A DNA stretch of 30,348 bases from an uncultured Candidatus Saccharibacteria bacterium. Its GTDB lineage: Bacteria > Patescibacteriota > Minisyncoccia > 2-02-FULL-40-12 > IGHO2-01-FULL-4-A. Shown piece after piece: positions 320-28,241 of the stretch; positions within the stretch are counted from its first letter, which is position 1, and every line of letters begins with the position of its first letter. The notes under the pieces were generated by a model. The model had not been told where the DNA came from and ran no database searches. It was given only the letters and a program-made list of their open reading frames with translations. The stretch spans positions 1 to 30,348 of the forward strand of contig CAYUQA010000085.1 in NCBI GenBank assembly GCA_964446135.1. The letters run 5' to 3'. Both the position numbers and the translations under genes were made by a program.

Positions 320-2923
320 ATGAATACATCAATTCGCACCAAGACAGTCGTTATAGCATCAGTACTCTTTGCAGTACTTTTTTCGGTAGTTAACTTTGCC
401 GGTGTCCGCGCTGATCTTATCGACTCCGATGGCAACGTTGCATTTAATACTAACGACACAATCGACTCCAATGGCAATGGCTACGTCTTCTTCGGTCCAA
501 ACGACTCTATTGATCCAACACCGACCGTAACATTTCGTCCAAACGACTCTATAGACCCACTTCCAACCAATCTTCCTGACGGTTGTGGTATTGTCTACGG
601 TCGCAAAATAGTTTGCGGCGCTCCATTTTCAACTCCAACTATCAGGCCGCCACATATTCCTTTTTATCCTACTGTCATTCCAACATATACACCTACCTAT
701 ACACTAGTTCCGCGTCCCACTCGCACCATCACTCCAATGCCTCCGATACAAGTCTACCCTTCAGTTGACTTAAAGGTTCGTGCCGGTAACACAAGTAATT
801 TTGTAGATGGCACTATCACGATTGATCAAAATGTGCCGTTCGAACTCTCTTGGAATTCAAACAATGTCTCAACCTGTAATGCCTCGGGTAACTGGAATGG
901 CGCCCGTGGTACTGTCGGCGCGCTAGTCATCGAAGCTGGTCTACCAGCCGGTCAATATCTATATACGCTAACCTGCACAGGTATATTTGGTAATGCAACT
1001 GATTTTGTCAGAGTAAACATCCGCGGCCCAACAATCACGCCAACACCGACACCAAATGCGCCAACCGTACAACTTCGCGCCAATGGTAGTGATCAAGATA
1101 TTACCATCAACTATAATCAAGCAGTTGCTCTATCTTGGACTTCAACCAATGCCAGCTACTGTGTCGCATCAGGCGATTGGAGCGGAACAAAATCAACACA
1201 AGGTTCACAAACAATTTCAAATAATATATTTCGAAAAGTCTTCTTATTGACCTGTTATGGTCAAGGCGGTAGTGCTTCGGATATCATTAACGTCCATGTT
1301 AATAATCAGGTAACTCCAACACCAACTCCGACGACTGCCCCCTATCTTACAGTCTCATTACAACCACAACCTCAAAGCGGCTATGTACCATTTGCTTCGA
1401 CTTTAACCGCCACGATCAACAGCAACACAAACGGCCCAATCACTTATAAATTTGATTGTACTAATGACGGTATCTACGAAGGTATCTGGACAAATATCTC
1501 AAACACGGTCTGGTCATTTACTTGTAATTACAATCAAGCCGGTACCTATACTGCCAGAGTTATCGCCGAACGCGATGGTTTAACTGCTACAGATACTCGC
1601 GGTATTACTGCATACAATCAAAATAATTATCAGAACACAATAGTCGATCTTACGACTAACCGCACTTCTGTAAATACTGGCGATAGCGCAATCCTTTCTT
1701 GGAATTCCCAAAACGCACAGTACTGCATAGCATCAAATGGCTGGTACGGTAGCAAGGCCACATCTGGTAATGAAATAGTATATAATATTTTCTCAACTAC
1801 GACATTTGTATTAACTTGCTACGGGAACAACTCTGCTTCTGATATAGTCACCATCTCTACAAACTCAAATACAAACAACGGCACAGTCACATTATCAAAA
1901 TCGGTTCGTAACGTATCGCGCTCAAGTGGTCTTGGTAGTTCAATAAACGCACAACCAAACGATACACTCGAGTTCGTAATTACGGCTACCAATAACAGCA
2001 ACTCAACGGCAAACAATGTCCGTGTCTATGATTCATTGCCATATGGCTTGAATTACGTCAATAACTCCGCGACGCAAAACGGATATTCTACAAACGGCGA
2101 GATCGTAAACAACGGTGCCTATATCAATCTGTCGCCAAACCAGACGATAACCTTCCGTTTTCAAGCAACGGTATCGGATAGTTTTATCTTAAATTACATT
2201 TCTTCAACGATCACAAATGTTGCCAATGCCTCTACAAACAATGGCTACGTTACCAGTAACACTGCGACCATCTATGTAAATAAAACCGCGGCTGTCATTG
2301 ATAATACACAAACTGGAACTTTGAGTATCCAAAAATTCGGCAAAGATATAAGTAAAGGCGACGCTACCGAACGCTCAAACTTAACCGCACAACCAAACGA
2401 TACTATTGAGTTTGTATTACGCGTTCGTACGCTGACATCAAGCACGATAGATAACGTCTACGTTCGCGATATTATGCCTGATGGTTTAATATATGTTCCG
2501 CGCTCAACCAGTATCAATGGCATCTCGGCTGCGGATGGCATTGTCGGCAGTTCTGGCCTGTTGATCGGCTCAATTGGAGCTGGCAACGAGATCATCATCC
2601 GCTTCAACGCAACAGTTAGCGCACAATCTTTCCAACGCGCCAACACATCTATCACAAATACCGCTATCGCTTTTGTTAATCAAACCAATACCAGCGTACA
2701 GTCCGGCCTTCCAATCACAATCAACAATCCACTCTACGGCGGTGTTATATCAAACCCGGGCAATATACAAACTGGTTCCGGCACTCTTTTGATAGCACTC
2801 TTGACCGGCCTTGTTATTACCACAGGTTATGTATTCTATAACCGCAGTGGTTACTCACAGAACCGCAGACTCAATAGAATTCTAAAAAATTCTAAAGCAA
2901 AGACTCAGTTCAATTTTGTCTAA
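320..2923 (+). CDS. Large secreted surface protein (867 aa): signal peptide, Pro/Thr linkers, three Cys-paired Ig-like repeats, PKD-like domain, two DUF11-like domains, C-terminal sortase-type sorting signal
   Basis: N-terminal hydrophobic leader; LSWxSxN..C.AS..W.G repeated three times; DUF11-like EFVITATN..VYDSLPYGLNYV and EFVLRVR..VRDIMPDGLIYV; C-terminal NIQTG + hydrophobic helix + basic tail; directly upstream of sortase. Confidence 0.85.
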   Translation: MNTSIRTKTVVIASVLFAVLFSVVNFAGVRADLIDSDGNVAFNTNDTIDSNGNGYVFFGPNDSIDPTPTVTFRPNDSIDPLPTNLPDGCGIVYGRKIVCGAPFSTPTIRPPHIPFYPTVIPTYTPTYTLVPRPTRTITPMPPIQVYPSVDLKVRAGNTSNFVDGTITIDQNVPFELSWNSNNVSTCNASGNWNGARGTVGALVIEAGLPAGQYLYTLTCTGIFGNATDFVRVNIRGPTITPTPTPNAPTVQLRANGSDQDITINYNQAVALSWTSTNASYCVASGDWSGTKSTQGSQTISNNIFRKVFLLTCYGQGGSASDIINVHVNNQVTPTPTPTTAPYLTVSLQPQPQSGYVPFASTLTATINSNTNGPITYKFDCTNDGIYEGIWTNISNTVWSFTCNYNQAGTYTARVIAERDGLTATDTRGITAYNQNNYQNTIVDLTTNRTSVNTGDSAILSWNSQNAQYCIASNGWYGSKATSGNEIVYNIFSTTTFVLTCYGNNSASDIVTISTNSNTNNGTVTLSKSVRNVSRSSGLGSSINAQPNDTLEFVITATNNSNSTANNVRVYDSLPYGLNYVNNSATQNGYSTNGEIVNNGAYINLSPNQTITFRFQATVSDSFILNYISSTITNVANASTNNGYVTSNTATIYVNKTAAVIDNTQTGTLSIQKFGKDISKGDATERSNLTAQPNDTIEFVLRVRTLTSSTIDNVYVRDIMPDGLIYVPRSTSINGISAADGIVGSSGLLIGSIGAGNEIIIRFNATVSAQSFQRANTSITNTAIAFVNQTNTSVQSGLPITINNPLYGGVISNPGNIQTGSGTLLIALLTGLVITTGYVFYNRSGYSQNRRLNRILKNSKAKTQFNFV

Positions 2924-2946
2924 AATATTTTAGGCAAATCAATATT

Positions 2947-3555
2947 ATGAAACTTCGAGCTACAATAATCTTCGTCGTTGCATTTGTGATTATATTTGCA
3001 ACATTGAATTTCTCTTCAATCATAAATGAGTTTAATTTCGCGACGCGCGATGTGCTCAATGCTCAAAGTATCAATGCATTTTATCTGCCGCTTTCAGCAG
3101 ATAAGAAACAGCAAGATCTTACAGAAGAAGCGACTCTAGTCATCGAAAAGCTCAACATATCGGCACCGATTATTTTCTCAAAAGCTCAAACAACAGATGC
3201 TATATATACTGATCTAAAAAAGGGTGTTGTTGTATATCCGGGCAGTGTCAAACCGGGCGAGCAAGGCTCTTCGCTGATTCTTGGACATAGTTCGAGCTAT
3301 CTGTGGGATAAAAATAAATATGGCAATATTTTTGCCCTAATAAATAAACTTCAGATCGGCGACACTTTTAGCATCCGCTATGCTGACGGTCAAACGTTCC
3401 GTTTTCAAGTTGATGAGTCTCTAATATTCAATCCATTTGATTCAGATAGTCTTGCCAAATTAAGTGCTACCGAAACCAGCAACGTCATTCTCATGAGTTG
3501 TTGGCCGACCGGTACTTCACTCAAACGCATCGGTATCAAAGGCGTACGCATATAA
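2947..3555 (+). CDS. Sortase family transpeptidase (202 aa)
   Basis: N-terminal membrane anchor, L.I.KLNI strand, catalytic His in ILGHSS, catalytic Cys in VILMSCWP (TLxTC variant), downstream Arg in KRI. Confidence 0.88.
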   Translation: MKLRATIIFVVAFVIIFATLNFSSIINEFNFATRDVLNAQSINAFYLPLSADKKQQDLTEEATLVIEKLNISAPIIFSKAQTTDAIYTDLKKGVVVYPGSVKPGEQGSSLILGHSSSYLWDKNKYGNIFALINKLQIGDTFSIRYADGQTFRFQVDESLIFNPFDSDSLAKLSATETSNVILMSCWPTGTSLKRIGIKGVRI

Positions 3556-3642: not shown

Positions 3643-3718
3643 CCGCCCTTAGCTCAGTTGGTAGAGCTGCTCCCTCTTAAGGAGAAGGTCGTTGGTTCGA
3701 ATCCAACAGGGCGGACCA
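3643..3718 (+). tRNA. tRNA-Lys, anticodon CTT, with encoded CCA
   Basis: Acceptor CCGCCCT/AGGGCGG, discriminator A, CCA 3716-3718; D-stem GCTC/GAGC; anticodon loop CT-CTT-AA; T-arm GTTGG-TTCGAAT-CCAAC. Confidence 0.96.
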
Positions 3719-5189
3719 TTTGAGATTTTTTACCACCAGATTCTTTATTGATGGCGTAGATATTAGATAATTTGGTGGTTCCAAATTTCTCACCGTCAAA
3801 GAACGGTTTTTCGTCAAAAATCATATTTTGGAAACGAACATTATTTGGGTGAGTCAATCTTAGCCATGTTTTAGCTGTCTCTCTTACAAAGTTAAAACAA
3901 TAATCCAGAGATTCTTCCATGTTAAACTCTTCAATATGGCTCTCCTGTAATAGTTGCCGCTTTTCGTATATTTTCTGATTAATCAAATCTTTCTGCTCAA
4001 CAAACTCCTCATCGTTATATCTGCCCGCTCTATGAAGATCAAAAATTTTTAATCTATCTTGCTCTAGATTCTCAACCTCTTTATTTATTTGAACATTCTC
4101 CTCATTAAATCTTTTGTAATTTGACTGCCAAATATCTATCATGATGGCCTTAAACATTTTCTCGTATTTTTTATTCGGAGTAATCTTGGTTAAATATTCA
4201 ACAAATAACTGTTCAAATGTTTCTTTGGGTATAAACTTTGCATTCTCGCAATTTTGACGATGGTGATGATAGTAAGGATATTTTACCCTCTTTCTTCCGG
4301 TAGAATAGCTACCGGTTATAGAGGTTCTGCAATTAGGACAGACAACTTTTCTTAAGGGGAAATTGGGATTAGCGCTTATTCTTTGTGTAGATTGAGATCT
4401 ATCTTTCTTTTTGCGCTGGCATTGATTAAATAACTCCTCACTAACTATTCCAAATGAACTTTTTATTCTCATTCCCCACACATCTATAATCCCACAATAT
4501 ATCGGATTCTTAATTATTCGCTCCATTAGTTGAGCAAAAGGTATTTTATTATTTCTAGTTCTAAATCCACGTTCACCTATGAATTTAGCCAATGCACGAT
4601 AACTATATTTGCCCTTAGCATATTCTTCGAATAAAAGTCTTATGTAAACAGAATCTTGAGGATGTGGTTCAATATTCGAACCAGAGTAAGATCTATAAAA
4701 ACCAATAGGAGCCGCCCATGTCCAAATTCCCTTCTTAAGCTGTTCCATCATGCCACTTATGCTCCTTTCTTTTCTGACGTTATTGTCTAATTCGGCAAAG
4801 ACAGAAAGCACACCCTCCATAGCCCTACCAAAAGGCGTTTCATTAATCGGCTCCGTAACTGATTTAAGCTCTGTTCCGAATTTTCTTAATATCGTCCTAA
4901 CGTTGACGTGATCATCTTGATTCCTTGCAAAACGATCTAACTTGTAAACAATAAAATAGTTAATGGGCTTTTTTTTGTTAGAACAAAGCGATATCGCTTT
5001 CATAAACTCTGGCCTGTCAGCAGTCTTAGCCGATTCTCCACGATCAACAAAAACTTTCGGATCCATAATTCCTAATTTCGTAGCATATTCACGGCATAGT
5101 CTTTCTTGCATATCTAAACTTGTTCCCTCAACCTGTTCCTTTGAAGAAACCCTACAATACAACACTCCCGTTTTTGCTGATTCGCTCAT
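3654..5189 (-). CDS. Large serine recombinase/integrase (511 aa): resolvase catalytic domain, recombinase domain, zinc ribbon, coiled coil
   Basis: LYCRVSSKEQ catalytic Ser motif, YKLDRFARN, WAAPIGFY, CPNC..YYHH..C ribbon; last 21 codons and TGA lie antisense within tRNA-Lys. Confidence 0.93.
   Translation of the reverse strand: MSESAKTGVLYCRVSSKEQVEGTSLDMQERLCREYATKLGIMDPKVFVDRGESAKTADRPEFMKAISLCSNKKKPINYFIVYKLDRFARNQDDHVNVRTILRKFGTELKSVTEPINETPFGRAMEGVLSVFAELDNNVRKERSISGMMEQLKKGIWTWAAPIGFYRSYSGSNIEPHPQDSVYIRLLFEEYAKGKYSYRALAKFIGERGFRTRNNKIPFAQLMERIIKNPIYCGIIDVWGMRIKSSFGIVSEELFNQCQRKKKDRSQSTQRISANPNFPLRKVVCPNCRTSITGSYSTGRKRVKYPYYHHHRQNCENAKFIPKETFEQLFVEYLTKITPNKKYEKMFKAIMIDIWQSNYKRFNEENVQINKEVENLEQDRLKIFDLHRAGRYNDEEFVEQKDLINQKIYEKRQLLQESHIEEFNMEESLDYCFNFVRETAKTWLRLTHPNNVRFQNMIFDEKPFFDGEKFGTTKLSNIYAINKESGGKKSQMVRPVGFEPTTFSLRGSSSTN
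3698..3716 (+). repeat. attL-like 19-bp direct repeat (CGAATCCAACAGGGCGGAC)
   Basis: Exact match to 7653-7671; runs from the T-loop to the first C of CCA. Confidence 0.93.
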
Positions 5190-14310: not shown

Positions 14311-15957
14311 ATGGTCAATATCTCAACACAGTCACAAAAAAAGACAGCGGAATTGGAAAAAAAGCTCTCGTCGCTTGAGAGCGTTGAGGTTGAGAGCAAC
14401 GTCAAAGAAGAAGCCAAAAAGCTATCCTTGCCGTATGTTGATCTGTCTTCTTACCCCGTCAACGTTAACGCCCTATTTCTACTTAGTGAGCAAGACTCGC
14501 GTACTGGACAGTGCGCTGTTGTTGAAAAGGCTGGGCAGACTATCACAATCGCGGTTAGAGACCCTAAAAACAACCAGACTCTATACATATTAAACACACT
14601 GAAGGACAGGGGGTTTACAATAAATCAAGTCTTAGTATCTGAAGTTGGCCTTGAAAACGTATGGAAACGCTATAGCGAACGCCAAGAAATCAGATTTGAG
14701 AATCCAGGCATTTTAGAAATAGGCGAGGCGGATATCAAATCGATAGAGGATATCGCTAATAAATTAAGTAATCTAGCCGTCACTGACATTTTGGAGAGTA
14801 TTATTGCGGCGGCGCTTAAGGCAGGATCTTCGGACATTCACCTTGAGCCAGAAGAAAAGAGTGTTCGTCTGCGTTTTCGTATTGATGGGGTGCTTCGAGA
14901 TGTAACAAACATCAATCACGACACATATCCGGGAGTATTGTCTCGTATAAAAGTAGTCTCCGGGCTCAAACTCAATATTCACGATGCGCCGCAAGATGGT
15001 CGTTTTACAATCCGCCAGAATAAAAAAGATACTGATGTTCGCGTTTCGATATTACCCGGTGCCTATGGCGAGAATGTAGTCGCTCGTATTTTAAACCCAG
15101 AAGCAGTTACCCATAAGATCGAGGACCTCGGTATGCGACCGGCGCTTTTGGCAGAAACTCGTGAGGTATTAAAGAAAACAACTGGCGCCTTATTGACAAC
15201 GGGACCGACCGGATCAGGAAAAACGACTACACTCTATGCGTTCCTTGAGGAAGTAAACAATTCTGGCGTTAAAATCATCACCATAGAGGACCCAATCGAG
15301 TATCACGTTCAAGGGGTTTCACAAACACAAGTGGACGATACGGCTGACTATACATTTGCTGATGGTTTGCGATCGATTATGCGACAAGATCCGGACGTGA
15401 TTCTGGTTGGAGAAATTCGCGATGGTGAGACAGCCGAGATCGCCATGCAGGCAGCGCTTACAGGACACTTTGTTTTTTCAACACTTCACACCAACGACGC
15501 CGCCGGAGCCATTCCGAGACTGATTGATCTAGGCGTAACTCCCATTACTATAGCTCCGGCTATCAAAGCGGTTATGGCCCAACGCCTTATTAGGCGCATA
15601 TGTAGCGCCTGTGCTGAGAAGAAGTCAATCACAGCAAGTGATAAGGCGACGCTAGAAAAATATTTTAAAAATCTACCGGATAAACAAGCGATTGATATTA
15701 GCTCCATTTCCGAGCTTACATATCCAAAAGGTTGTGATGCCTGTGATAAATCAGGATATAAAGGACGCGTCGGGGTATTCGAACTTTTTACTATTGATGA
15801 CGAGATCGAAAAGTTAATTCTACAATCACCTGCGATATCGACAGTCAGGGATATTGCGATTAAAAAGGGCATGGTCCCGATGTTGCAAGACGGTTTATTG
15901 CGAGTAATTGAAGGTATGACAACCGTCGATGAGGTGATTAGAGTAGTTGGAACGTAA
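14311..15957 (+). CDS. pilB: Type IV pilus assembly/type II secretion ATPase, PilB/GspE family (548 aa)
   Basis: SDIHLEP, Walker A GPTGSGKTT, Asp box TIEDPIEY, Walker B RQDPDVILVGEIRD, His box TLHTND, CxxC..CxxC zinc site. Confidence 0.9.
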   Translation: MVNISTQSQKKTAELEKKLSSLESVEVESNVKEEAKKLSLPYVDLSSYPVNVNALFLLSEQDSRTGQCAVVEKAGQTITIAVRDPKNNQTLYILNTLKDRGFTINQVLVSEVGLENVWKRYSERQEIRFENPGILEIGEADIKSIEDIANKLSNLAVTDILESIIAAALKAGSSDIHLEPEEKSVRLRFRIDGVLRDVTNINHDTYPGVLSRIKVVSGLKLNIHDAPQDGRFTIRQNKKDTDVRVSILPGAYGENVVARILNPEAVTHKIEDLGMRPALLAETREVLKKTTGALLTTGPTGSGKTTTLYAFLEEVNNSGVKIITIEDPIEYHVQGVSQTQVDDTADYTFADGLRSIMRQDPDVILVGEIRDGETAEIAMQAALTGHFVFSTLHTNDAAGAIPRLIDLGVTPITIAPAIKAVMAQRLIRRICSACAEKKSITASDKATLEKYFKNLPDKQAIDISSISELTYPKGCDACDKSGYKGRVGVFELFTIDDEIEKLILQSPAISTVRDIAIKKGMVPMLQDGLLRVIEGMTTVDEVIRVVGT

Positions 15958-18080: not shown

Positions 18081-18689
18081 ATGAAAGTTATCGTTGCCGC
18101 TATCGTCTTTTTTATTACCGCCACAGGGCTCATCCTCTCCACACGTACAGATACAGCTGGCAATGCCGTCATCTCCAATTCGCTGACGCCATCAATATCA
18201 ATAACTAAAAACAGCTCCAGGACTGCGACTATTAATCAAGCTATTACGACAGCTAGTACTAAGGCACTTCGAACTACAGAGGCCACGCTCATACCAGTAC
18301 AGACTCCGGCGCCTTCGCAAACGTATACAGAGACAATAACACCAACAAAAACACCGACACCGACAGTATTAATACCGACAGCTACAACGCCGCCTAAAAC
18401 CCTCACTCCAATACCGACAATACTTACACCAAGTCCCGTCACGATAACTTCTACGCCAACACCCACAACAACACCACAAACGCCGGTTCCAACTCCAGAG
18501 CCAACAACCAGCACGACTACAAGTAACCATATCTATTACACCAGTTCTTATAAGACATCTAAATACTACTACTGCGATACCGATAATGCCTGGAAGGGGC
18601 TTTCACCAAACAACCTAAAATCATTTTCATCGCCCGAAGCATTACTTGCAGAATTCTCAAATCGCAGTCTACATGAACCGTGTAAATAA
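18081..18689 (+). CDS. Membrane-anchored/secreted Thr/Pro-rich protein with small aromatic C-terminal domain (202 aa)
   Basis: N-terminal hydrophobic helix, long TP-rich linker, C-terminal YYTSSY..YYYCDTD.AWKGL domain with two Cys. Confidence 0.75.
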   Translation: MKVIVAAIVFFITATGLILSTRTDTAGNAVISNSLTPSISITKNSSRTATINQAITTASTKALRTTEATLIPVQTPAPSQTYTETITPTKTPTPTVLIPTATTPPKTLTPIPTILTPSPVTITSTPTPTTTPQTPVPTPEPTTSTTTSNHIYYTSSYKTSKYYYCDTDNAWKGLSPNNLKSFSSPEALLAEFSNRSLHEPCK

Positions 18690-18788: not shown

Positions 18789-19265
18789 ATGCGAATACTT
18801 GGTATTGATCCAGGAACATCACTCATTGGTTATGGTGTTATCGAATCACAAAAATCAAAAAATATATCCTTGGCGCATGGCGCCATCAGAACACCACCCA
18901 AAATTCCAACACACGAACGAGTCGCCGAGGTCGAGCGTTTTTTACACAAATTGATAGAACAGTATAAGCCCGATCTCGTCGCTATCGAAAAATTATTTTT
19001 CTTCAAAAATGCCAAAACGGTCATGGCAGTCAGTGAAATGCGTGGCGCACTAATGATGATTGCCAGCAAACATCAACTGCCGGTGCGCGAGTTTACGCCG
19101 CTTCAAGTTAAGCAGGCGGTAACAGGCTATGGTCGTGCTGAGAAGCATCAGATACAACAAATGGTCACAATAATCTTGAATTTAAAAGAAGTTCCAAAGC
19201 CCGATGATGTTGCTGATGCTTTAGCTATTGCAATTTGCTGTGCGAATACTATAGTGTACCAATAA
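18789..19265 (+). CDS. ruvC: Crossover junction endodeoxyribonuclease RuvC (158 aa)
   Basis: ILGIDPG, VAIEKLFF, E.TPLQVK.AVTGYG.A.K.Q, DDVADALAIA. Confidence 0.96.
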   Translation: MRILGIDPGTSLIGYGVIESQKSKNISLAHGAIRTPPKIPTHERVAEVERFLHKLIEQYKPDLVAIEKLFFFKNAKTVMAVSEMRGALMMIASKHQLPVREFTPLQVKQAVTGYGRAEKHQIQQMVTIILNLKEVPKPDDVADALAIAICCANTIVYQ

Positions 19266-19352
19266 TACTTTTTGTCTCCAAATTTTTTAACAGACTCCCC
19301 GACAAGATTTGAGTGGTAGGTCTTAATATAATTTGGCGAAAAAAGCAGATTT

Positions 19353-19463
19353 ATGAGTAACGAAGAATATCGCTACCGTCTTGATGATGAAGAAGAAAAT
19401 GATGATTTAGATGAAGATGAAGACGAAGAAGAAGAGGAAGAAGATGATGAGGACGAATCTTAA
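19353..19463 (+). CDS. Hyper-acidic microprotein A (36 aa; MSNEEYRYRLDDEEENDDLDEDEDEEEEEEDDEDES)
   Basis: Translated by hand; 25 of 36 residues are D/E with mixed synonymous codons; TATAAT at 19327-19332; shares EEYR..LD with the next ORF. Confidence 0.65.
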   Translation: MSNEEYRYRLDDEEENDDLDEDEDEEEEEEDDEDES

Positions 19464-19482
19464 TTTTTTAGCTTTAGATTAT

Positions 19483-19511
19483 TTGCATTTTATAAAGAGT
19501 CATATTATAGT
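19483..19511 (+). promoter_or_regulatory. Promoter for microprotein B
   Basis: TTGCAT (19483-19488), 17 bp, TATAGT (19506-19511). Confidence 0.55.
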
Positions 19512-19597
19512 ATCCCCGAACCATAACACTGCTTGTATCTGGATCGCGTGTCGCTTATTTAAACGGTGTGTCAATTCAGATAGGAGAGGTACACAGT

Positions 19598-19684
19598 ATG
19601 ATTCAAGAAGAATATCGTCTCGATGGTGAGACAACCGAGGCTACACCAGCAGCAGAAGAAAAAAATGAAGAACAAGCTGCGTAG
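19598..19684 (+). CDS. Acidic microprotein B (28 aa; MIQEEYRLDGETTEATPAAEEKNEEQAA)
   Basis: AGGAGAGGT Shine-Dalgarno at 19582-19590, own promoter and terminator, N-terminus similar to microprotein A. Confidence 0.7.
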   Translation: MIQEEYRLDGETTEATPAAEEKNEEQAA

Positions 19685-19698
19685 TTCTCACTCAATAC

Positions 19699-19728
19699 AA
19701 AAACCACTCAACAGGCAGAGTGGTTTTT
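19699..19728. terminator. Bidirectional terminator between microprotein B and tyrS
   Basis: AAAAACCACTC-AACAGGCA-GAGTGGTTTTT. Confidence 0.8.
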
Positions 19729-19745
19729 ATTTACTGATGTAGAGC

Positions 19746-20969
19746 CTAGCTCTCGTCTATTTTTAAAAACCGGTGCGAACCAATTTGAATTATATCGCCT
19801 TTTTTGATGGCGATATTTGGATTGTCTATTTTTTCACCATTAATTGAAATGCCTTTTTGCTCAACCAGACGACGCACTTCTGATTTTGAGACAATAACTC
19901 CACTATTGTTTAAAACATCAGCTAAACTTTCATTATCCGAAGTAGGTGAGTAGCTTTTAATATCCTTAGGAATTTCTTTTTCAGTAAATTCTTTCTGCGA
20001 CTGATCGGCGGCAATATCACCATGATATATGCGTGTAATTTCGTGTGCTAAGGCCAATTTAAAATCACGATAATCAGTGGAATTCTCATCAGATTTTTTC
20101 TGCCATGCTTTTATTTTTTGCCGACCATTTTCAGTATCACACACTTCGGTACACAGTTCAAAGACAGTCTTAATCATCTCATCTGGAATAAAAGCCATAA
20201 CCTTACCAAACATTTCTCGAGGAATCTCATCAAGAGCGATAAGTCCGCCCTCGCTCTTGCTCATTTTTTTACCAGAATCGGCATTAACCAATAATCGTGT
20301 TGCTAATACTATTTTGTCTTTTTTTAAATATTCTTTTTCGAGATCGCGACCAATAAGCATATTAAAAATCTGATCGTTGCCGCCAATCTCGCCATCAACT
20401 TCAAGTGCCACCGAATCATAGCCCTGCATTAATGGGTAAAAGAACTCGTGTAAATAAATCGGTTTTTTATTTTTAATTCTCTCCTGAAACATATCTCTCT
20501 CTAAAAGCTGTTGCACTGTCACTCTACTGGAAAGATCGAGTACGCGCTCGAGGTTAAGAGATTCAAGCCATGTCCTATTGTAGACAATATCAAAACTATC
20601 TTCTTTAAGAATTTTATGCACTTGATCGACATAGGTCAGCATATTCTGCTCTATCTCTTCTGATGATAATGTAGTGCGAGCGGCGGCTTTATCCATAGGA
20701 TCACCTATACGAGCAGTAAAATCGCCGATAAGAAGAGTAATTTTATGTCCAAGTTCAGAGATGTGTTTTAGTAAGAATAATGGAACTGTATGTCCCAGAT
20801 GAAGAGATGGTCCAGTAGGATCAATACCGAAATAAAAATGCAGTTGCTCTTCTAAGGCAAAGCGCTTAAGCACCATCTCGCGATTAGGGAAAAAATGCAT
20901 TATACGACCGCCATCTTCTTCTAAACGTAAAATAATATCTATCGCTTTTTTGTCGGTATTTATAGTCAT
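19746..20969 (-). CDS. tyrS: Tyrosine--tRNA ligase (407 aa)
   Basis: GIDPTGPSLHLGH (HIGH), YPLMQGYD, GGNDQIFN, KMSKS, C-terminal S4 domain. Confidence 0.97.
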   Translation of the reverse strand: MTINTDKKAIDIILRLEEDGGRIMHFFPNREMVLKRFALEEQLHFYFGIDPTGPSLHLGHTVPLFLLKHISELGHKITLLIGDFTARIGDPMDKAAARTTLSSEEIEQNMLTYVDQVHKILKEDSFDIVYNRTWLESLNLERVLDLSSRVTVQQLLERDMFQERIKNKKPIYLHEFFYPLMQGYDSVALEVDGEIGGNDQIFNMLIGRDLEKEYLKKDKIVLATRLLVNADSGKKMSKSEGGLIALDEIPREMFGKVMAFIPDEMIKTVFELCTEVCDTENGRQKIKAWQKKSDENSTDYRDFKLALAHEITRIYHGDIAADQSQKEFTEKEIPKDIKSYSPTSDNESLADVLNNSGVIVSKSEVRRLVEQKGISINGEKIDNPNIAIKKGDIIQIGSHRFLKIDES

Positions 20970-23430: not shown

Positions 23431-24519
23431 TTATGAACGTAATGGCATTATGATGTAGATAAAATTCTTATCTGAGTCATTTTTAAGTACTAGTGGATTA
23501 CCCTCTCCTGTATATTCTAATATAACATTATCACTACGTATCGATTTAAGTCCATCCAATAGATATCTGTAATTCATAGAGACTGCAAATGGTTCATAAG
23601 AATCTTGTGTTAATATTGCCGCATTTAATTCTCCGCGATCAGTATTTTGTGAAAATATCTCAAGACGATCTTCTATTAAACGTAAAGTTATATCGGATAT
23701 TGTTGAAGAAAAAATACTCGCCAACCGTACTGTTTTTTCAAATTCTTGCCGTGGAATTTTTAATGTAGCTATAGAGTTGTTAGGAATAATCCTTTTATAA
23801 TCAGGATAACGTCCGTCAATAAGACGAGAGACAAATTGAAAATTCTGATTTGATAAAAAGAATTGATTTTCAGATAATTCAAATTCAATATCTTCATCAA
23901 GACTATCAATAATACGAATAATCTCGATCGCTGTTGTCCGAGGAATAATAAATTGCTTTGTTATCCCTAAATCACAAGCAAGCTCTTGTTCAGCAAGACG
24001 AAAACTATCAGTGGCGGCAAAAATAATTTTATTTTCATGTAATTGTAAAAAAATTCCGCTTAATTCAGGACGTAATTCAGATAGTGATGCCGAATCCAGA
24101 ACTGATGATAGACCCTGTTTTAATACTCCGCGATTTATGGATATCGGTTCAACTGTTTTATTTGAAGGGATAATCGGGAATTCATGACTATCCATTCCTA
24201 ATAATTTCGTAGCTATTTTTTCTGTTTGTATCTGAAGTGTATTTTTTACGGCAGTTAGTGTGATTTTTTCGTCATGGATATTTTGAATAAATTCAGAAAA
24301 TAGTCTTGCCGGCACAACAAGTTCCCCTTCGGCTTCAATCTTTGCACCAATCCAATAATGCATTCCTATCTCCAGATTTGTGGCAGAGAGTCTAAGACGT
24401 CCTTGATCTGTCTTTAAAAGAATCCCATTTAAAATTGGTAGACTGTTATTCTTTGCGGCAACATGCTCCACGACCCGAACTGCATTTAGGAGCCTCTGAT
24501 GATTAATAATTATATTCAT
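23431..24519 (-). CDS. dnaN: DNA polymerase III beta sliding clamp (362 aa)
   Basis: LPILNGIL, SATNLEIG, ATDSFRLA, SRLIDGRYPDY, MNYRYLLD, IMPLR. Confidence 0.97.
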   Translation of the reverse strand: MNIIINHQRLLNAVRVVEHVAAKNNSLPILNGILLKTDQGRLRLSATNLEIGMHYWIGAKIEAEGELVVPARLFSEFIQNIHDEKITLTAVKNTLQIQTEKIATKLLGMDSHEFPIIPSNKTVEPISINRGVLKQGLSSVLDSASLSELRPELSGIFLQLHENKIIFAATDSFRLAEQELACDLGITKQFIIPRTTAIEIIRIIDSLDEDIEFELSENQFFLSNQNFQFVSRLIDGRYPDYKRIIPNNSIATLKIPRQEFEKTVRLASIFSSTISDITLRLIEDRLEIFSQNTDRGELNAAILTQDSYEPFAVSMNYRYLLDGLKSIRSDNVILEYTGEGNPLVLKNDSDKNFIYIIMPLRS

Positions 24520-24728
24520 ATGTTATTACTACTATTATAGGTGTGATTATGGGGATAAGTTATTATTTGTCTATATGTATCAACCGATTATGTTAGATTT
24601 TACGTGTGTGTAACTCGGGGATAATTTTGGATAACTATGTGTATAATTTGGAGTGTTTATAAATCGATTACTTATACTCAAGTTTATGCAAAAGTTTTGG
24701 CCATACTATCGACATAGTTATAAACAGG
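24520..24728. other. Replication origin oriC (dnaA-dnaN intergenic)
   Basis: About ten DnaA-box-like 9-mers (24550, 24605, 24616, 24626, 24638, 24654 on -; 24672, 24684, 24706, 24718 on +) and an AT-rich trinucleotide run at 24522-24540. Confidence 0.85.
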
Positions 24729-26099
24729 CTATAAGTTCTCTATATTTTGGTAGATTCTTTCTTTGATTAAAATAAGTTCTTGCTTAGTGGATTCATTACC
24801 ATCTTCTTCACGTTTAATTTTTTCATATGCGTGTATTACCGTAGAATGATCTCTTCCTCCAAGTTTAGATCCTATTTCAGGAAAAGATAATTTTATCTCT
24901 TCTCGTAAAAGAAACATTGCTATTTGTCGTGGTCGGACAATCTCTTTTTTGCGACTGCGTTTTATCAGATCATTTTGGGAGATATTATAAAATTCGGCGA
25001 TTATTTTTAGAACTTGCTGATAATTTGTTTTGCGATATGGAGTTGTGAGATATGCGACGAGAAGTTTTTTAATTTCTTTCAGTTCCGGAGCTTTATTATA
25101 TATTTGACCGAAGGCGATAACACGATTAAGAGCGCCCTCTAGCTCGCGAATATTTTTTTGAATATTAGTGGCGATATATCCAAGACTATCCTCATTAAGC
25201 ATAAAATCTTTTTCTCGACATTTTACTTTTAAGATAGCTAATCTGGTCTCATAGTCAGGGATACCAACGTCAGCTATCATACCGCCTTCAAAACGCGAAC
25301 GTAAACGTCCTTCAAGTGCCGGGATAGCACTAGGTTGGCGATCAGAAGACAAAATAATCTGTTTATTTTTGCTATAAAGTTCGTTGAACGTGGCAAAAAA
25401 TATCTCTTGCGTACGCTCTTTACCGGCAATAAATTGAATATCATCAATAATAAGACAGTCTATTTTGGCGTATCTTTGTTTGAGCTCTTCTATTGTTTTG
25501 TTTTTTATCGATTCTATAATATCCGAAGTCATTCTCTCGGAAGAGATATAAGCGACTTTTTTCTCTGGCATCAGCGCGCTTATCTGATTGCCGGCCGCTT
25601 GAATAAGATGTGTTTTACCAAGACCAACACCACCATAAATAAAAAGCGGATTATATGTTTTGCCGATATTCTTTGAAACAGCAATACTGGCCGCGTGGGC
25701 AAGCTCGTTATTACTACCAACAACGAATGAGTCGAAAGTATAACGCTTGTTTATATTGGTTGACTTATCAATATCGCTATCGAACGAGTCTTCGTGCTGT
25801 AATCTTTCAGGAATAAATTGAGGAAAATGTTTGCGGATAGTTGGTAATGAGTTTAAACCGCCAACAGTATATTTTATCTCGCGAATATCTGGATCAAATT
25901 TCGCTATAACGCCAAAAATATTTTTATTAAATTTATTTTCTAACCACTCTTTTACAAAACCATTAGGGACACTTACGAGAATAGAATCTTTTGTGCTAGA
26001 TAATATATTCGTATTTTTAAACCATGTTGTGAAATTAGCTTTTGAAAGCGAAATTTCCATCTCCGCAAGTACTGCTTTCCATAGTTCTTCTTTCATCAT
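24729..26099 (-). CDS. dnaA: Chromosomal replication initiator DnaA (456 aa)
   Basis: YTFDSFVVG, YNPLFIYGGVGLGKTHL, IDDIQF, RLRSRFEGG, NIRELEGAL, RPRQIAMFL, GGRDHSTVIHA. Confidence 0.98.
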   Translation of the reverse strand: MMKEELWKAVLAEMEISLSKANFTTWFKNTNILSSTKDSILVSVPNGFVKEWLENKFNKNIFGVIAKFDPDIREIKYTVGGLNSLPTIRKHFPQFIPERLQHEDSFDSDIDKSTNINKRYTFDSFVVGSNNELAHAASIAVSKNIGKTYNPLFIYGGVGLGKTHLIQAAGNQISALMPEKKVAYISSERMTSDIIESIKNKTIEELKQRYAKIDCLIIDDIQFIAGKERTQEIFFATFNELYSKNKQIILSSDRQPSAIPALEGRLRSRFEGGMIADVGIPDYETRLAILKVKCREKDFMLNEDSLGYIATNIQKNIRELEGALNRVIAFGQIYNKAPELKEIKKLLVAYLTTPYRKTNYQQVLKIIAEFYNISQNDLIKRSRKKEIVRPRQIAMFLLREEIKLSFPEIGSKLGGRDHSTVIHAYEKIKREEDGNESTKQELILIKERIYQNIENL

Positions 26100-26147
26100 A
26101 ATGGGAAAAAAAGATGTTGCCGAAAAAATCGTTCAACAGTCTCGTTA

Positions 26148-26261
26148 CTATACACACTTTCAAATTAAAAAGTAAAATTTATAATTTATTTTTTAATCTA
26201 TGGCCATAATATAGCCAAATCATTTTTTAAAAGAGTTGATAAGATGTGTATAACTGGATAA
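26148..26261. promoter_or_regulatory. DnaA boxes in the dnaA-rpmH intergenic region
   Basis: CTATACACA 26148-26156 (+), TTATACACA on - at 26245-26253, weaker TTATCAACT and TTATCCAGT flanking it. Confidence 0.6.
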
Positions 26262-26274
26262 AGAATAACAAGTA

Positions 26275-26303
26275 TTGACTAATCTTATTTTTTTTGTTAT
26301 CAC
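26275..26303 (+). promoter_or_regulatory. Likely rpmH-rnpA-yidD-yidC promoter
   Basis: TTGACT (26275-26280), 17 bp, TG-T-TATCAC (imperfect -10). Confidence 0.45.
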
Positions 26304-26341
26304 TAATATGTAGTAGTAATACTTTTTAGCACATATTTACT

Positions 26342-26479
26342 ATGAAAATCACACTCTATAGACCAAAGAAAAAGAAGCGAAAAAAGAAGCATGGTTTTTT
26401 GAAGCGGGCAGAATCCAAAAACGGCAAAAAAGTTCTTGCGCGTCGTCGGGCAAAAGGCAGAAAGAAATTAACCGTTTAA
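26342..26479 (+). CDS. rpmH: 50S ribosomal protein L34 (45 aa), below ORF-track cutoff
   Basis: [45 protein letters not shown]; conserved position before rnpA. Confidence 0.97.
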
Positions 26480-26485
26480 AGATTA

Positions 26486-26812
26486 ATGTCTTTTTTAAAA
26501 AAACATCGTCTTCGAACAAAAAAACAGTTCGACGAGATATTTAAGAGGGGTAAAAGCATACGCGGCAGTTTTTATTTAGCCAAATATATACCGAATAATC
26601 TATCTAATAGTCGTTTTACCATCATGGTTTCTAAAAAGATTGTCTCGGGCGCGGTGGCTAGAAACAAAATGCGTCGGCGAATACGCGAGGCATGGCGTAT
26701 GTATGGTGGTCTTTCGTCGGCGTTTGATATTATATTTAATATACAAAAGCCAACCAATCTTTCGAGTTTGGAGATACAAAAAGAAATGCGCGATCTCAAT
26801 TTACCCCATTAA
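26486..26812 (+). CDS. rnpA: Ribonuclease P protein component (108 aa)
   Basis: RL..K.QF..IFKRG, RF...VSKK...[13 protein letters not shown] (RNR motif). Confidence 0.93.
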
Positions 26813-26822
26813 TATTTATTTA

Positions 26823-27062
26823 ATGAAAGATATACTAAAAAAGTTTATATTAGGCCTAATCCGCTTATATCAAAGAACTATCTCGCCATCACACGGTATT
26901 TATCTTTTAGCTCCCTGCTGTCGTTATTATCCTTCTTGTTCTGAATATACAGCGAAAGCCATTAGTCATTTCGGATTATTTCGCGGGATAATTATGGGCT
27001 GTTGGCGTATCGCGCGTTGCCAGCCTTTTTCTCGTGGTGGCGTGGATGATATCAAAATATGA
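26823..27062 (+). CDS. yidD: Membrane protein insertion efficiency factor YidD (79 aa)
   Basis: [31 protein letters not shown]; start MKDILK. Confidence 0.93.
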
Positions 27063-27757
27063 TTCAATTTTTCAACACAATTCTTTTTTATCCAGTCTTT
27101 AATTTACTGGTTTTAATATACAATACAGTCGCATTTCAGGACTTTGGTTTAGCAGTTGTTATATTGACCATAGGTGTGCGTTTAGTGCTATCGCCATTAT
27201 CTATAAGGGCGATCCGTTCTCAGCGTGAGATGAGCGCGATACAGCCCCAGATAAAAGAGCTCCAGGAGCGTCACAAGGGCAACCGTGAAGAGTTGGGGCG
27301 CGCGACGATGGCACTCTATAAAGAACATAAAGTTAACCCTTTTGGTGGCTGTTTGCCCCTATTGGTTCAGATACCGGTACTCTTGGCACTATATAGCGCT
27401 TTTAGCGCCGCATTTAATCCGGCTAGTTTTGCAAATATCTATTCTTTTATTACAAATCCCGGCACGATTAATCCGCTAACTCTTGGTTTTATTGATCTTA
27501 CTAAAACCAGTCCCATATTAGCCATACTAGCCGGCGGACTTCAATTTATTCAATCTTGGCAATCACAAAAGTTAACTCCGGCTAGCAATCAACAGATGGC
27601 CGGCATGAATAAGCAATTATTGTATTTTTTCCCAGTCATCGTTATAATTATCTCTTGGAAATTACAAACTGGAATCGTATTATATTGGGTCGCAACGACC
27701 TTATTCTCAATAGTCGAATTAATATATATATCCAAGAAATATCATGTCCGATCTTAA
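27059..27757 (+). CDS. yidC: YidC/Oxa1 membrane insertase, short form without large periplasmic domain (232 aa)
   Basis: [56 protein letters not shown]. Confidence 0.95.
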
Positions 27758-28241
27758 TCATATATTTAAGGAGACAACAAAAGCCTGCTTAGAAAAGCTT
27801 GGTATTAGCGCCGAACTTTTGTTTTTGGATATACCAGAGAAAAAGCTTAAAGTTATAAATATTAAACCATCAGCTAACGATTCCCAAATTCTTATTGGTA
27901 AACATGGACAAAATCTAAGCGCTTTAGAACACTGTGTTAGATTGATAGCTTTCAAAAAAATAACAGAGCAAGCGGATCAAAATATTAATGACATTAATTT
28001 TGTACTCGATGTTGATGACTATCGTAAATTTCGGGCAGAAGAGATCGTCTCACTAGCTAAAACCACCGCAGAGCGTGTTTCTAACACTCGACGAGCAGAG
28101 GCTTTGCCGCCGATGACATCATATGAGCGTCGCATAGTGCATGTTGAGCTGGCTGGATTTAGTGATCTTCATACAGAGAGCATCGGACAAGAACCTCGAC
28201 GCCGAATCGTTATTAAACCAGACTCGGCACTGTTTTTGTGA
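27744..28241 (+). CDS. jag: Jag/KhpB-like KH-R3H RNA-binding protein (165 aa)
   Basis: KH LIGKHGQNLSALE, R3H LPPMTSYERRIVH, G.EPRRRIVI; follows yidC. Confidence 0.85.
   Translation: MSDLNHIFKETTKACLEKLGISAELLFLDIPEKKLKVINIKPSANDSQILIGKHGQNLSALEHCVRLIAFKKITEQADQNINDINFVLDVDDYRKFRAEEIVSLAKTTAERVSNTRRAEALPPMTSYERRIVHVELAGFSDLHTESIGQEPRRRIVIKPDSALFL

Follow-up and report, generated by a model that had tools for sequence, protein, structure and literature searches.

A small acidic protein family encoded directly downstream of ruvC in Patescibacteria and represented by two divergent copies in a Saccharibacteria locus

Introduction

Polyanionic disordered segments, such as the C-terminal tail of the RNA polymerase (RNAP) delta subunit of Firmicutes, the C-terminal tail of SSB and region 1.1 of sigma70, compete with nucleic acid or recruit partners. 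Ocr, ArdA, DMP19, HI1450 and the C-terminal helix of DinI, which are small and strongly negative, target DNA-binding proteins, and DinI regulates recombination via RecA. In eukaryotes, DSS1/Sem1 of the BRCA2 recombination complex, a small acidic disordered protein with a known partner, works together with recombination proteins and competes against DNA at binding surfaces (PMC7641332, PMC11329725). Here we analyze a 30,348-nucleotide stretch of DNA from an uncultured Candidatus Saccharibacteria bacterium (contig CAYUQA010000085.1; the whole stretch is termed the window), in which two short open reading frames (ORFs), ORF A and ORF B, are located between ruvC and tyrS. ORF A and ORF B belong to a family of small acidic proteins that is widespread in Patescibacteria and is encoded directly downstream of ruvC.

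The likeness of this family to DSS1/Sem1 lies in the tiny size (~70 aa in DSS1/Sem1), the highly acidic composition, the disorder and the few conserved aromatic or hydrophobic anchors. However, the anchors are spread along the chain of the eukaryotic protein, whereas in the acidic family an N-terminal head is followed by a tail, and none of 24 family members matches Pfam DSS1_SEM1 at E <= 1. The acidic tails of RNAP delta, SSB and sigma70 region 1.1 likewise combine a polyanionic disordered segment with a short hydrophobic docking element, yet they are covalently joined to a folded domain, whereas the product here is free-standing and its hydrophobic element is N-terminal. Family members contain no HARE-HTH, OB or sigma domain, and they are distinguished from RNAP delta (RpoE) by a length of only 28–80 aa without a domain and by the absence of fused homologues from the exhaustive search described below. 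Folded DNA mimics (Ocr, ArdA, DMP19 and HI1450) share the small size and the strong net negative charge, but their carboxylates are fixed in a DNA-like array, whereas the acidic family is predicted to be mostly disordered; family members have no match in PHROG, Pfam or PDB, and AlphaFold2 (AF2) predicts only a helix at residues 3–16. Precursors of double-glycine bacteriocins or pheromones carry a GG site after an L-S-x-x-E-L-x-x-I leader and have a C39-peptidase ABC exporter nearby. ORF A and ORF B contain no GG motif, and their neighbours are ruvB, ruvC, tyrS and PBP1A.

Results

Two short acidic ORFs between ruvC and tyrS

The ruvC–tyrS interval of the window is 480 nt long and contains two short ORFs on the + strand (Table 1). 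ORF A, which starts 87 nt after the ruvC stop codon, is composed of 10 D and 15 E among its 36 residues (69% D/E), with two R and no K. Translation of the window in six frames yields no other polyacidic tract, and ORF A is predicted as a gene in a Logan assembly. ORF B, which is located further on in the same slot, has nine D/E residues (32%). As the initial annotation of this DNA had pointed out, both ORFs open with M-x-x-EEYR..LD. At the DNA level, the 11-nt sequence GAAGAATATCG has two exact copies in the 30-kb window, against 0.01 expected, and both run from codon 4, one in ORF A and the other in ORF B. The extended pattern GAAGAATATCG-N(1-7)-CTNGAT also gives two matches in the window versus 0.00 expected.

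The window has a GC content of 39.6%. Its nearest RuvC proteins share 73%, 68% and 68% identity and all come from uncultured assemblies, while the named relatives by RuvC are Yanofskybacteria, Paceibacterota, Saccharibacteria and "Patescibacteria group". In addition, a 1.9-kb Logan contig (L001; L numbers denote loci) derives from the same organism and differs at two positions, both in tyrS. No relatives nearer than these RuvC matches and L001 were found in any collection searched.

Table 1. Coordinates of the acidic ORFs, their neighbours and the associated signals in the window.
Feature	Position	Strand	Description
ruvC (Holliday-junction resolvase)	18789-19265	+	Pfam RuvC, E = 8e-50; conserved upstream neighbour of the acidic gene
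Weak long hairpin in the ruvC–ORF A gap	19268-19345	+	Minimum free energy -17.1 kcal/mol; z = -1.43; 15/200 shuffles as stable
Isolated -10-like TATAAT	19327-19332	+	20 nt before the ORF A start; no acceptable -35
ORF A	19353-19463	+	MSNEEYRYRLDDEEENDDLDEDEDEEEEEEDDEDES; 36 aa; hyper-acidic paralogue with predicted N-terminal helix and poly-D/E tail
ORF A N-terminal motif EEYRYRLDD	19362-19388	+	
Promoter-like TTTGCA-18-TATAGT	19482-19511	+	9/12; upstream of ORF B
Shine–Dalgarno GGAGAGG	19583-19589	+	8 nt before the ORF B ATG
ORF B	19598-19684	+	MIQEEYRLDGETTEATPAAEEKNEEQAA; 28 aa; mildly acidic paralogue
ORF B N-terminal motif EEYRLDG	19607-19627	+	
Intrinsic terminator	19699-19733	+	11-bp stem (stem-loop 19699-19728), 8-nt loop, U-run; between ORF B and tyrS
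tyrS (tyrosyl-tRNA synthetase)	19746-20969	-	Pfam tRNA-synt_1b, E = 3e-63; convergent downstream neighbour

The same slot in relatives holds a small acidic protein family

A strict M-x(0-6)-EEY[RK] scan of 160 ruvC or tyrS loci recovered the window's own copy only; the motif in this form is clade-specific, and the family surfaced only through a combined scan for composition and position. Specifically, 165 fetched loci (0.9 Mb) were scanned on both strands for ORFs of 20–90 aa with a D/E fraction of at least 0.45. The scan gave 43 ORF matches, with several duplicates among the loci. Every match is located between ruvC and tyrS/PBP; two of them are atypical, one located on the opposite strand (L053) and the other 656 nt from ruvC (L147). 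The acidic ORF is absent from the scanned RuvC loci outside Patescibacteria (Clostridia, Paenibacillus and others).

We further defined a set of 56 Patescibacteria loci in which tyrS or PBP1A lies within 1.2 kb downstream of ruvC. By automatic criteria, 46 of the 56 carry a small acidic ORF immediately after ruvC and in the same orientation, and about five others contain an evident sub-threshold member by eye, such as MQNEYRLMEEDE... in L090 and MSEQNFKYSLLEEDE... in L093. The loci of the three nearest RuvC homologues each have one small acidic ORF between ruvC and tyrS, which reads MNTEEIYRLDDELEESDDMLTPEEEEDDEEEEQA in L162, MDNELKYLFEEDIEEK... followed by poly-D/E in L163, and MEHLKYLLEETDEVEE... 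in L166. P0127 and P0128, which were found by sequence alone, also occupy the ruvC-X-tyrS-PBP slot. In five Saccharibacteria loci, tyrS is missing from the site and the acidic ORF still follows ruvC, indicating that the linkage is to ruvC rather than to tyrS. Moreover, a terminator abuts the family ORF in nearly all related loci and is usually shared with the convergent tyrS, the family stop codon being separated from the terminator stem by 0–10 nt in most loci.

Both window ORFs are located downstream of ruvC on the same strand and share the size and composition of the family, namely a length of 28–80 aa, a D/E-rich tail and a scarcity of K and R, with ORF A at 69% D/E and ORF B (32%) at the low end of the range of 0.32–0.69. 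ORF B holds the canonical position of the family, with its stop codon abutting the terminator, whereas ORF A is followed by an unstructured spacer of 134 nt.

Profile searches of Pfam, NCBIfam, PHROG and PDB with family members gave no match, the Pfam search with 24 members returning only four unrelated low-complexity models (E = 0.24–0.9). A family profile retrieved 10 matches from a word-indexed set of 5.8 billion proteins, and an exhaustive hidden Markov model search of 1.84 billion representatives retrieved 12 matches at E <= 1e-3, which are 39–53 aa in length, match over nearly their full length and belong to one sub-clade only. Among these 12 matches, none is fused to another domain or larger protein. 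The only name given to matched members in any source is "hypothetical protein", and no description of small acidic proteins of Patescibacteria was found in the literature. The suggestion that the pair represents an undescribed small-protein family is thereby borne out: the family is real, is absent from curated libraries and appears to be undescribed.

Purifying selection acts on the acidic protein

In a (GAN)n tract, one frame is free of stop codons throughout, and a GA-dinucleotide constraint by itself would mimic third-position freedom. ORF A might, on these grounds, be nothing but an open GAW low-complexity tract of DNA or RNA and ORF B a chance ORF, and a protein search with the concatenated A+B query indeed returned no matches, probably because of the correction for low-complexity bias. 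In close pairs of family members, however, the ratio of nonsynonymous to synonymous substitution rates (dN/dS) is mostly 0.07–0.4 (maximum 0.77), with an excess of third-position changes; the differences at the three codon positions number 1/3/12 in L088/L101 and 3/4/19 in L083/L098. Since a (GAN)n constraint could produce such a pattern, the first 16 codons were tested apart. In this segment, 70, 39 and 117 differences fall at the first, second and third codon positions, and 59 of the 175 non-D/E residues that are identical have different codons, so that selection acts on the amino acids, those of the non-acidic motif codons included. Additionally, the start codon, frame, stop codon and terminator are retained in more than 50 divergent loci despite differing ORF lengths. 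Reading frames and motif are therefore kept in relatives, which argues for coding, as the initial annotation had supposed. The 11-mer common to codon 4 of both ORFs and the well-spaced Shine–Dalgarno sequence at ORF B also speak against a non-genic origin of the pair. Taken together, these findings show that the protein encoded by the acidic gene is under purifying selection, and the notion that the ORFs are not genes, which is already largely refuted for the family of ORF A, is extremely improbable.

Separately, a 72-aa ORF in the +2 frame (19411–19629) begins with a stretch rich in Lys (MKMKTKKKRKK...) and runs from within ORF A through the spacer into the start of ORF B. Because it represents the GAW tract read in another frame and the slots of relatives are too short to accommodate it, this ORF was judged, together with the antisense ORFs, to be a mechanical by-product of the tract.

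A hydrophobic N-terminal head precedes a polyanionic tail

The design of the family was analyzed in 51 unique members, which range from 28 to 80 aa in length (median 51) and from 0.32 to 0.69 in D/E fraction (median 0.53). The N-terminal motif spans ~15 residues (10–16) and is hydrophobic, with aromatic residues and leucine. The hydrophobic fraction is 0.36 in residues 2–16 versus 0.10 in the tail, the D/E fraction is 0.31 versus 0.62, and an aromatic residue is present in the head of 47 of the 51 members. The proposed design, in which a short N-terminal motif is joined to a polyanionic tail, thus holds across the family. The EEYR(YR)LD motif from which it was deduced is conserved, but it is only one clade's form of the looser [DE]-x-[KR]-[YF]-x-L-[LD]-E-E. 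In particular, an alignable EE(x)YRLDD motif is found in ORF A, ORF B, L162 and L021, with a related NEYRLMEE in L090, while DLKYSLLEEDEL, DYKLSLLEEEEL, LKYLFEED and NYKFDEAEE are alignable motifs of other clades; the locus scan also produced the head variants EDLKSPLLLEDDE and DPLYLLRADE, which stand outside the motif alignment. Within the shared pattern x-[YF]-[KRS]-[LF]-..-[ED][ED], the window motifs EEYR(YR)LDD and EEYRLDG align with KYSLLEEDE and YKLSLLEEE of other clades. When ORF A was modelled by AF2 from a small alignment, the predicted helix at residues 3–16 had a predicted local distance difference test (pLDDT) score of ~72 and the remainder was of low confidence; the model as a whole has a mean pLDDT of 64.8 and a predicted template modelling score of 0.23. 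The D/E-rich tail is presumably disordered.

The tail sequence varies freely while remaining D/E-rich, and the length of the proteins ranges from 28 to 80 aa. Such latitude would suit a non-specific polyanion resembling prothymosin-alpha, which would act as a general electrostatic chaperone of ribosomal and nucleoid proteins or as a buffer of Mg2+, Ca2+ or polyamines and would have no dedicated partner; the strong promoters and terminators in relatives, which suggest high expression, point in the same direction. However, the N-terminal motif is the only non-acidic conserved element and is under amino-acid-level selection within clades, and such conservation is difficult to account for unless the motif makes a specific contact or serves another specific role. 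We therefore regard a non-specific polyanion as unlikely, although it deserves serious consideration.

Motifs that bind the beta-clamp follow the consensus Q-L-[SD]-L-F or Q-L-x-L-x-L. In some clades, residues 7–11 of the acidic protein read KLSLL or KYSLL, a lead that comes from comparison with this consensus, and dnaN is located 4 kb away in the window. The N-terminal motif might in that case be a QL[SD]LF-like clamp ligand, placed N-terminally as in Hda, with the tail modulating clamp traffic. Nevertheless, position 1 is never Q, and inspection of the window motifs, Y-R-L-D-D and Y-R-L-D-G, reveals that they lack the hydrophobic residues of consensus positions 4–5, and binding to the clamp is consequently improbable.

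The window carries two copies and relatives carry one

The slot contains two copies in the window only, and relatives carry a single one; the tandem arrangement is thus not the usual state of the family but a peculiarity of this locus. ORF B resembles the single L162 orthologue over its entire length, with identity at 17 of 27 aligned residues, among them TP and the EEQA at the C-terminus. The similarity of ORF A to L162 and L021 lies in its N-terminal half (YRLDDE.EE.DD), and ORF A is much more acidic; orthologue-like ORFs that share the YRLDD motif with it are present in L162, L021 and L090, the form in L090 being YRLMEE. Because the 11-mer is located at the same codon position in the two ORFs and both resemble L162, ORF A and ORF B are paralogous.

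In a local DNA alignment of the A unit with the B unit, only a 21-nt segment covering the start and the motif was aligned, and its score is within the shuffle range. A DNA-level duplication of the entire unit was rejected, as no similarity is detectable beyond the motif. The duplication is, for the same reason, either not recent or was followed by quick divergence.

Expression signals around the pair in the window

The terminator predicted after the pair is strong, with z = -3.59 versus shuffles. On the other hand, the initial annotation assigned each ORF its own promoter, and separate promoters for ORF A and ORF B are not demonstrable in the window. The top two-hexamer promoter match in the ruvC–ORF A gap scores 8/12 (shuffle p = 0.88), and the 9/12 match upstream of ORF B is unremarkable locally, promoter-like matches in the ORF B region not being enriched over shuffles (7 versus 4.5 +/- 2.2 expected). 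The Shine–Dalgarno sequence of ORF B is unusual for this DNA, since an SD-like sequence is present at no more than 1–2 of the 25 other listed gene starts in the window.

Window genes mostly lack a Shine–Dalgarno sequence, as exemplified by the starts at 14311, 20969(-), 21039 and 24519(-), and several have a TATAAT-like box 5–15 nt before the ATG. The closeness of these boxes to the ATGs suggests that transcripts in the window may be leaderless or have very short leaders.

With respect to RNA structure, the weak hairpin in the ruvC–ORF A gap sits where many relatives have a structured intercistronic hairpin. The 134-nt spacer between ORF A and ORF B is unsupported as a structured RNA (z = +1.58 versus shuffles), and the sub-hairpin before ORF B is weak (z = -0.9); the AUCUGG/UCAGAU stem of this ORF B hairpin resembles stems in L083, L084 and L099, and the Shine–Dalgarno sequence of ORF B pairs into the lower stem in the predicted spacer fold. 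At the gathering threshold, Rfam detected two tRNAs only in the window, both outside the region, and its matches within 19200–19800 at E <= 10 are noise.

Promoters and hairpins in the gap after ruvC in relatives

The gap that separates the acidic ORF from ruvC (median length 90 nt) adopts two architectures. In the first, it contains a perfect or near-perfect sigma-70 promoter, TTGACA-16-TATAAT. Promoters that match at 12/12 positions are present, for example, in L050, L126, L131 (4514-4541(-)), L142 and L149; other promoter-bearing gaps are those of L127 and L051 and, by eye, of L031, L035, L041, L055, L138 and L089. The -35 hexamer overlaps the TGA stop codon of ruvC in several of these lineages. 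The perfect or near-perfect match indicates that a strong promoter of its own serves the small gene in these lineages. An AAGGTC(G)-like motif is also found 5–40 nt before the ATG of the acidic ORF in L031, L035, L041, L055, L050, L051, L138, L155 and L100, and its counterpart in the window is TAGGTCT at about 19316–19322.

In the second architecture, the gap contains a long hairpin, with z values of -1.8 to -7.7 in 11 relatives and L089 as an exception (-0.6). Hairpins are located in L110 (4319-4414(-)), L102 (4334-4429(-)), L111 (2107-2202(-)), L119 (3437-3527(-)), L167 (684-775) and L168 (1-78), as well as in L096, L103, L093 and L109. For one clade, a covariance model (R1) covers 10 copies of a 25-bp helix, in which 91.9% of the cells are paired versus 38–54% in a slid-partner control and seven pairs show compensatory changes. 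The many G-U pairs and the far higher score of the sense strand point to a structure of the sense-strand RNA. The R1 model finds no match in the window. No consensus emerged when RNAalifold was applied to a plain MAFFT alignment of 17 gaps, whereas alignment at the clade level combined with a covariance model was successful; Rfam identified no family in the gaps of 10 related loci. The gap hairpin may serve for RNase III processing, stabilise the 5' end or act as a translational operator.

These features bear on whether the ORF acts in cis. In bacteria, N-terminal D/E runs trigger intrinsic ribosome destabilisation and abort translation (PMC12673854, PMC9718836, bioRxiv 10.1101/2021.02.02.429294), and consecutive D/E residues near the start of a very short ORF are shared with MgtL-type acidic nascent peptides (PMC12673854, PMC9718836). 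The acidic gene might hence be a hard-to-translate ORF whose poly-D/E chain destabilises or pauses the ribosome, with stop-codon occupancy tuning termination, mRNA stability or read-through and the peptide being a by-product. The short distance between stop codon and terminator stem in most loci, the structured 5' hairpins just upstream of the start in many lineages and the pairing of the ORF B Shine–Dalgarno sequence would all fit such a role. However, MgtL-type peptides, like known regulatory leader peptides in general, precede the genes that they control, whereas the family ORF is the last gene before the terminator; in the window and in most loci, the terminator and a convergent gene (tyrS in the window) follow, leaving no same-strand downstream gene to regulate. 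Furthermore, the stability of the window hairpins does not exceed that of shuffles (z = -1.4 and -0.9). A cis-acting role is accordingly doubtful, less probable than that of a non-specific polyanion and more so than that of a clamp ligand.

Other features of the window

In relatives, yebC is located directly upstream of ruvC. The corresponding block of the window is without yebC, and its place (18081–18689) is taken by a gene for a Thr/Pro-rich protein of 202 aa, which has a hydrophobic segment at its N-terminus and does not match any Pfam model. Near one end of the window, a surface protein of 867 aa with DUF11 repeats is followed by a sortase (320–3555), an anchoring pair that is typical of Gram-positive-type envelopes. 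A large serine recombinase with Resolvase, Recombinase and Zn-ribbon domains is encoded at 3654–5189 (-), and its 3' end overlaps tRNA-Lys(CTT) at 3643–3718 (+). ORFs without Pfam matches follow it to about 8242, and the region is possibly a mobile element that inserted at the tRNA. A replication-origin gene cluster at 23431–28241 consists of dnaN (-) and dnaA (-), then rnpA, yidC and a gene for a Jag/KhpB-like R3H protein (+). Three DnaA-box-like sites, each with one mismatch, lie between dnaN and dnaA (24550–24646); over the whole window, the count of such boxes is not above chance (13 versus 8.2 +/- 3.2).

Discussion

We propose, with a probability of roughly 0.4, that ORF A and ORF B are translated paralogues whose products are disordered polyanions that dock on a nucleic-acid-binding partner and compete there with DNA or RNA. 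The product would be a free polyanionic disordered protein, probably an abundant one. Its N-terminal amphipathic helix would dock on the partner, and the acidic tail would compete electrostatically with DNA or RNA for the partner's basic surface. Judging from composition and gene neighbourhood, the product may in effect be a detached acidic tail or a nucleic-acid mimic. DSS1 sets a precedent for competition with DNA by a small acidic disordered protein during recombination (PMC7641332, PMC11329725). The Holliday-junction machinery (RuvC/RuvAB) is the first candidate partner by gene neighbourhood alone, and any abundant basic nucleic-acid-binding protein is equally possible; the initial annotation had named RuvC, RNAP, the ribosome and phage enzymes as putative targets. 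In the window, the hyper-acidic ORF A and the milder ORF B, which contains T, P and A, would differ in charge density and, through it, possibly in competing strength or in partner.

Several observations weigh against this proposal. About half of the Patescibacteria ruvC loci (species representatives) have no acidic ORF beside ruvC, and ORF B is known only from the window and the near-identical L001. The argument from the RuvC neighbourhood carries little weight, since synteny extends over the entire block ruvB-yebC-ruvC-X-tyrS-PBP1A, unrelated genes included. Because the acidic ORF has its own promoter in several lineages, it need not be co-regulated with ruvC. In E. coli, D/E runs this near the start codon destabilise translating ribosomes (PMC12673854, PMC9718836), and the yield of protein could be low for this reason.

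A broader version of the proposal is unlikely. In this version, the family would be a phylum-wide, strongly expressed free "acidic tail" microprotein, a bacterial counterpart of DSS1 or prothymosin. As a disordered competitor of DNA or RNA, it would control the processing of Holliday junctions or a different core machine of nucleic-acid metabolism; the intercistronic hairpin or its own consensus promoter would shape its mRNA, and the duplication in the window would have split it into hyper-acidic and mild isoforms.

Genomes of the candidate phyla radiation (CPR)/Patescibacteria are tiny, and nearly every conserved gene in them is expected to matter. The slot of this microprotein is kept across several classes (Saccharimonadia-, Paceibacteria- and Yanofskybacteria-like genomes), and it has had no name, family model or literature. 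Most homology searches miss the family, and synteny combined with composition can recover microprotein families of this kind. The peptides are short enough for synthesis. If the acidic protein indeed regulates recombination or another nucleic-acid machine in trans as a polyanion, it would represent a rare bacterial case of a free-standing disordered acidic regulator.

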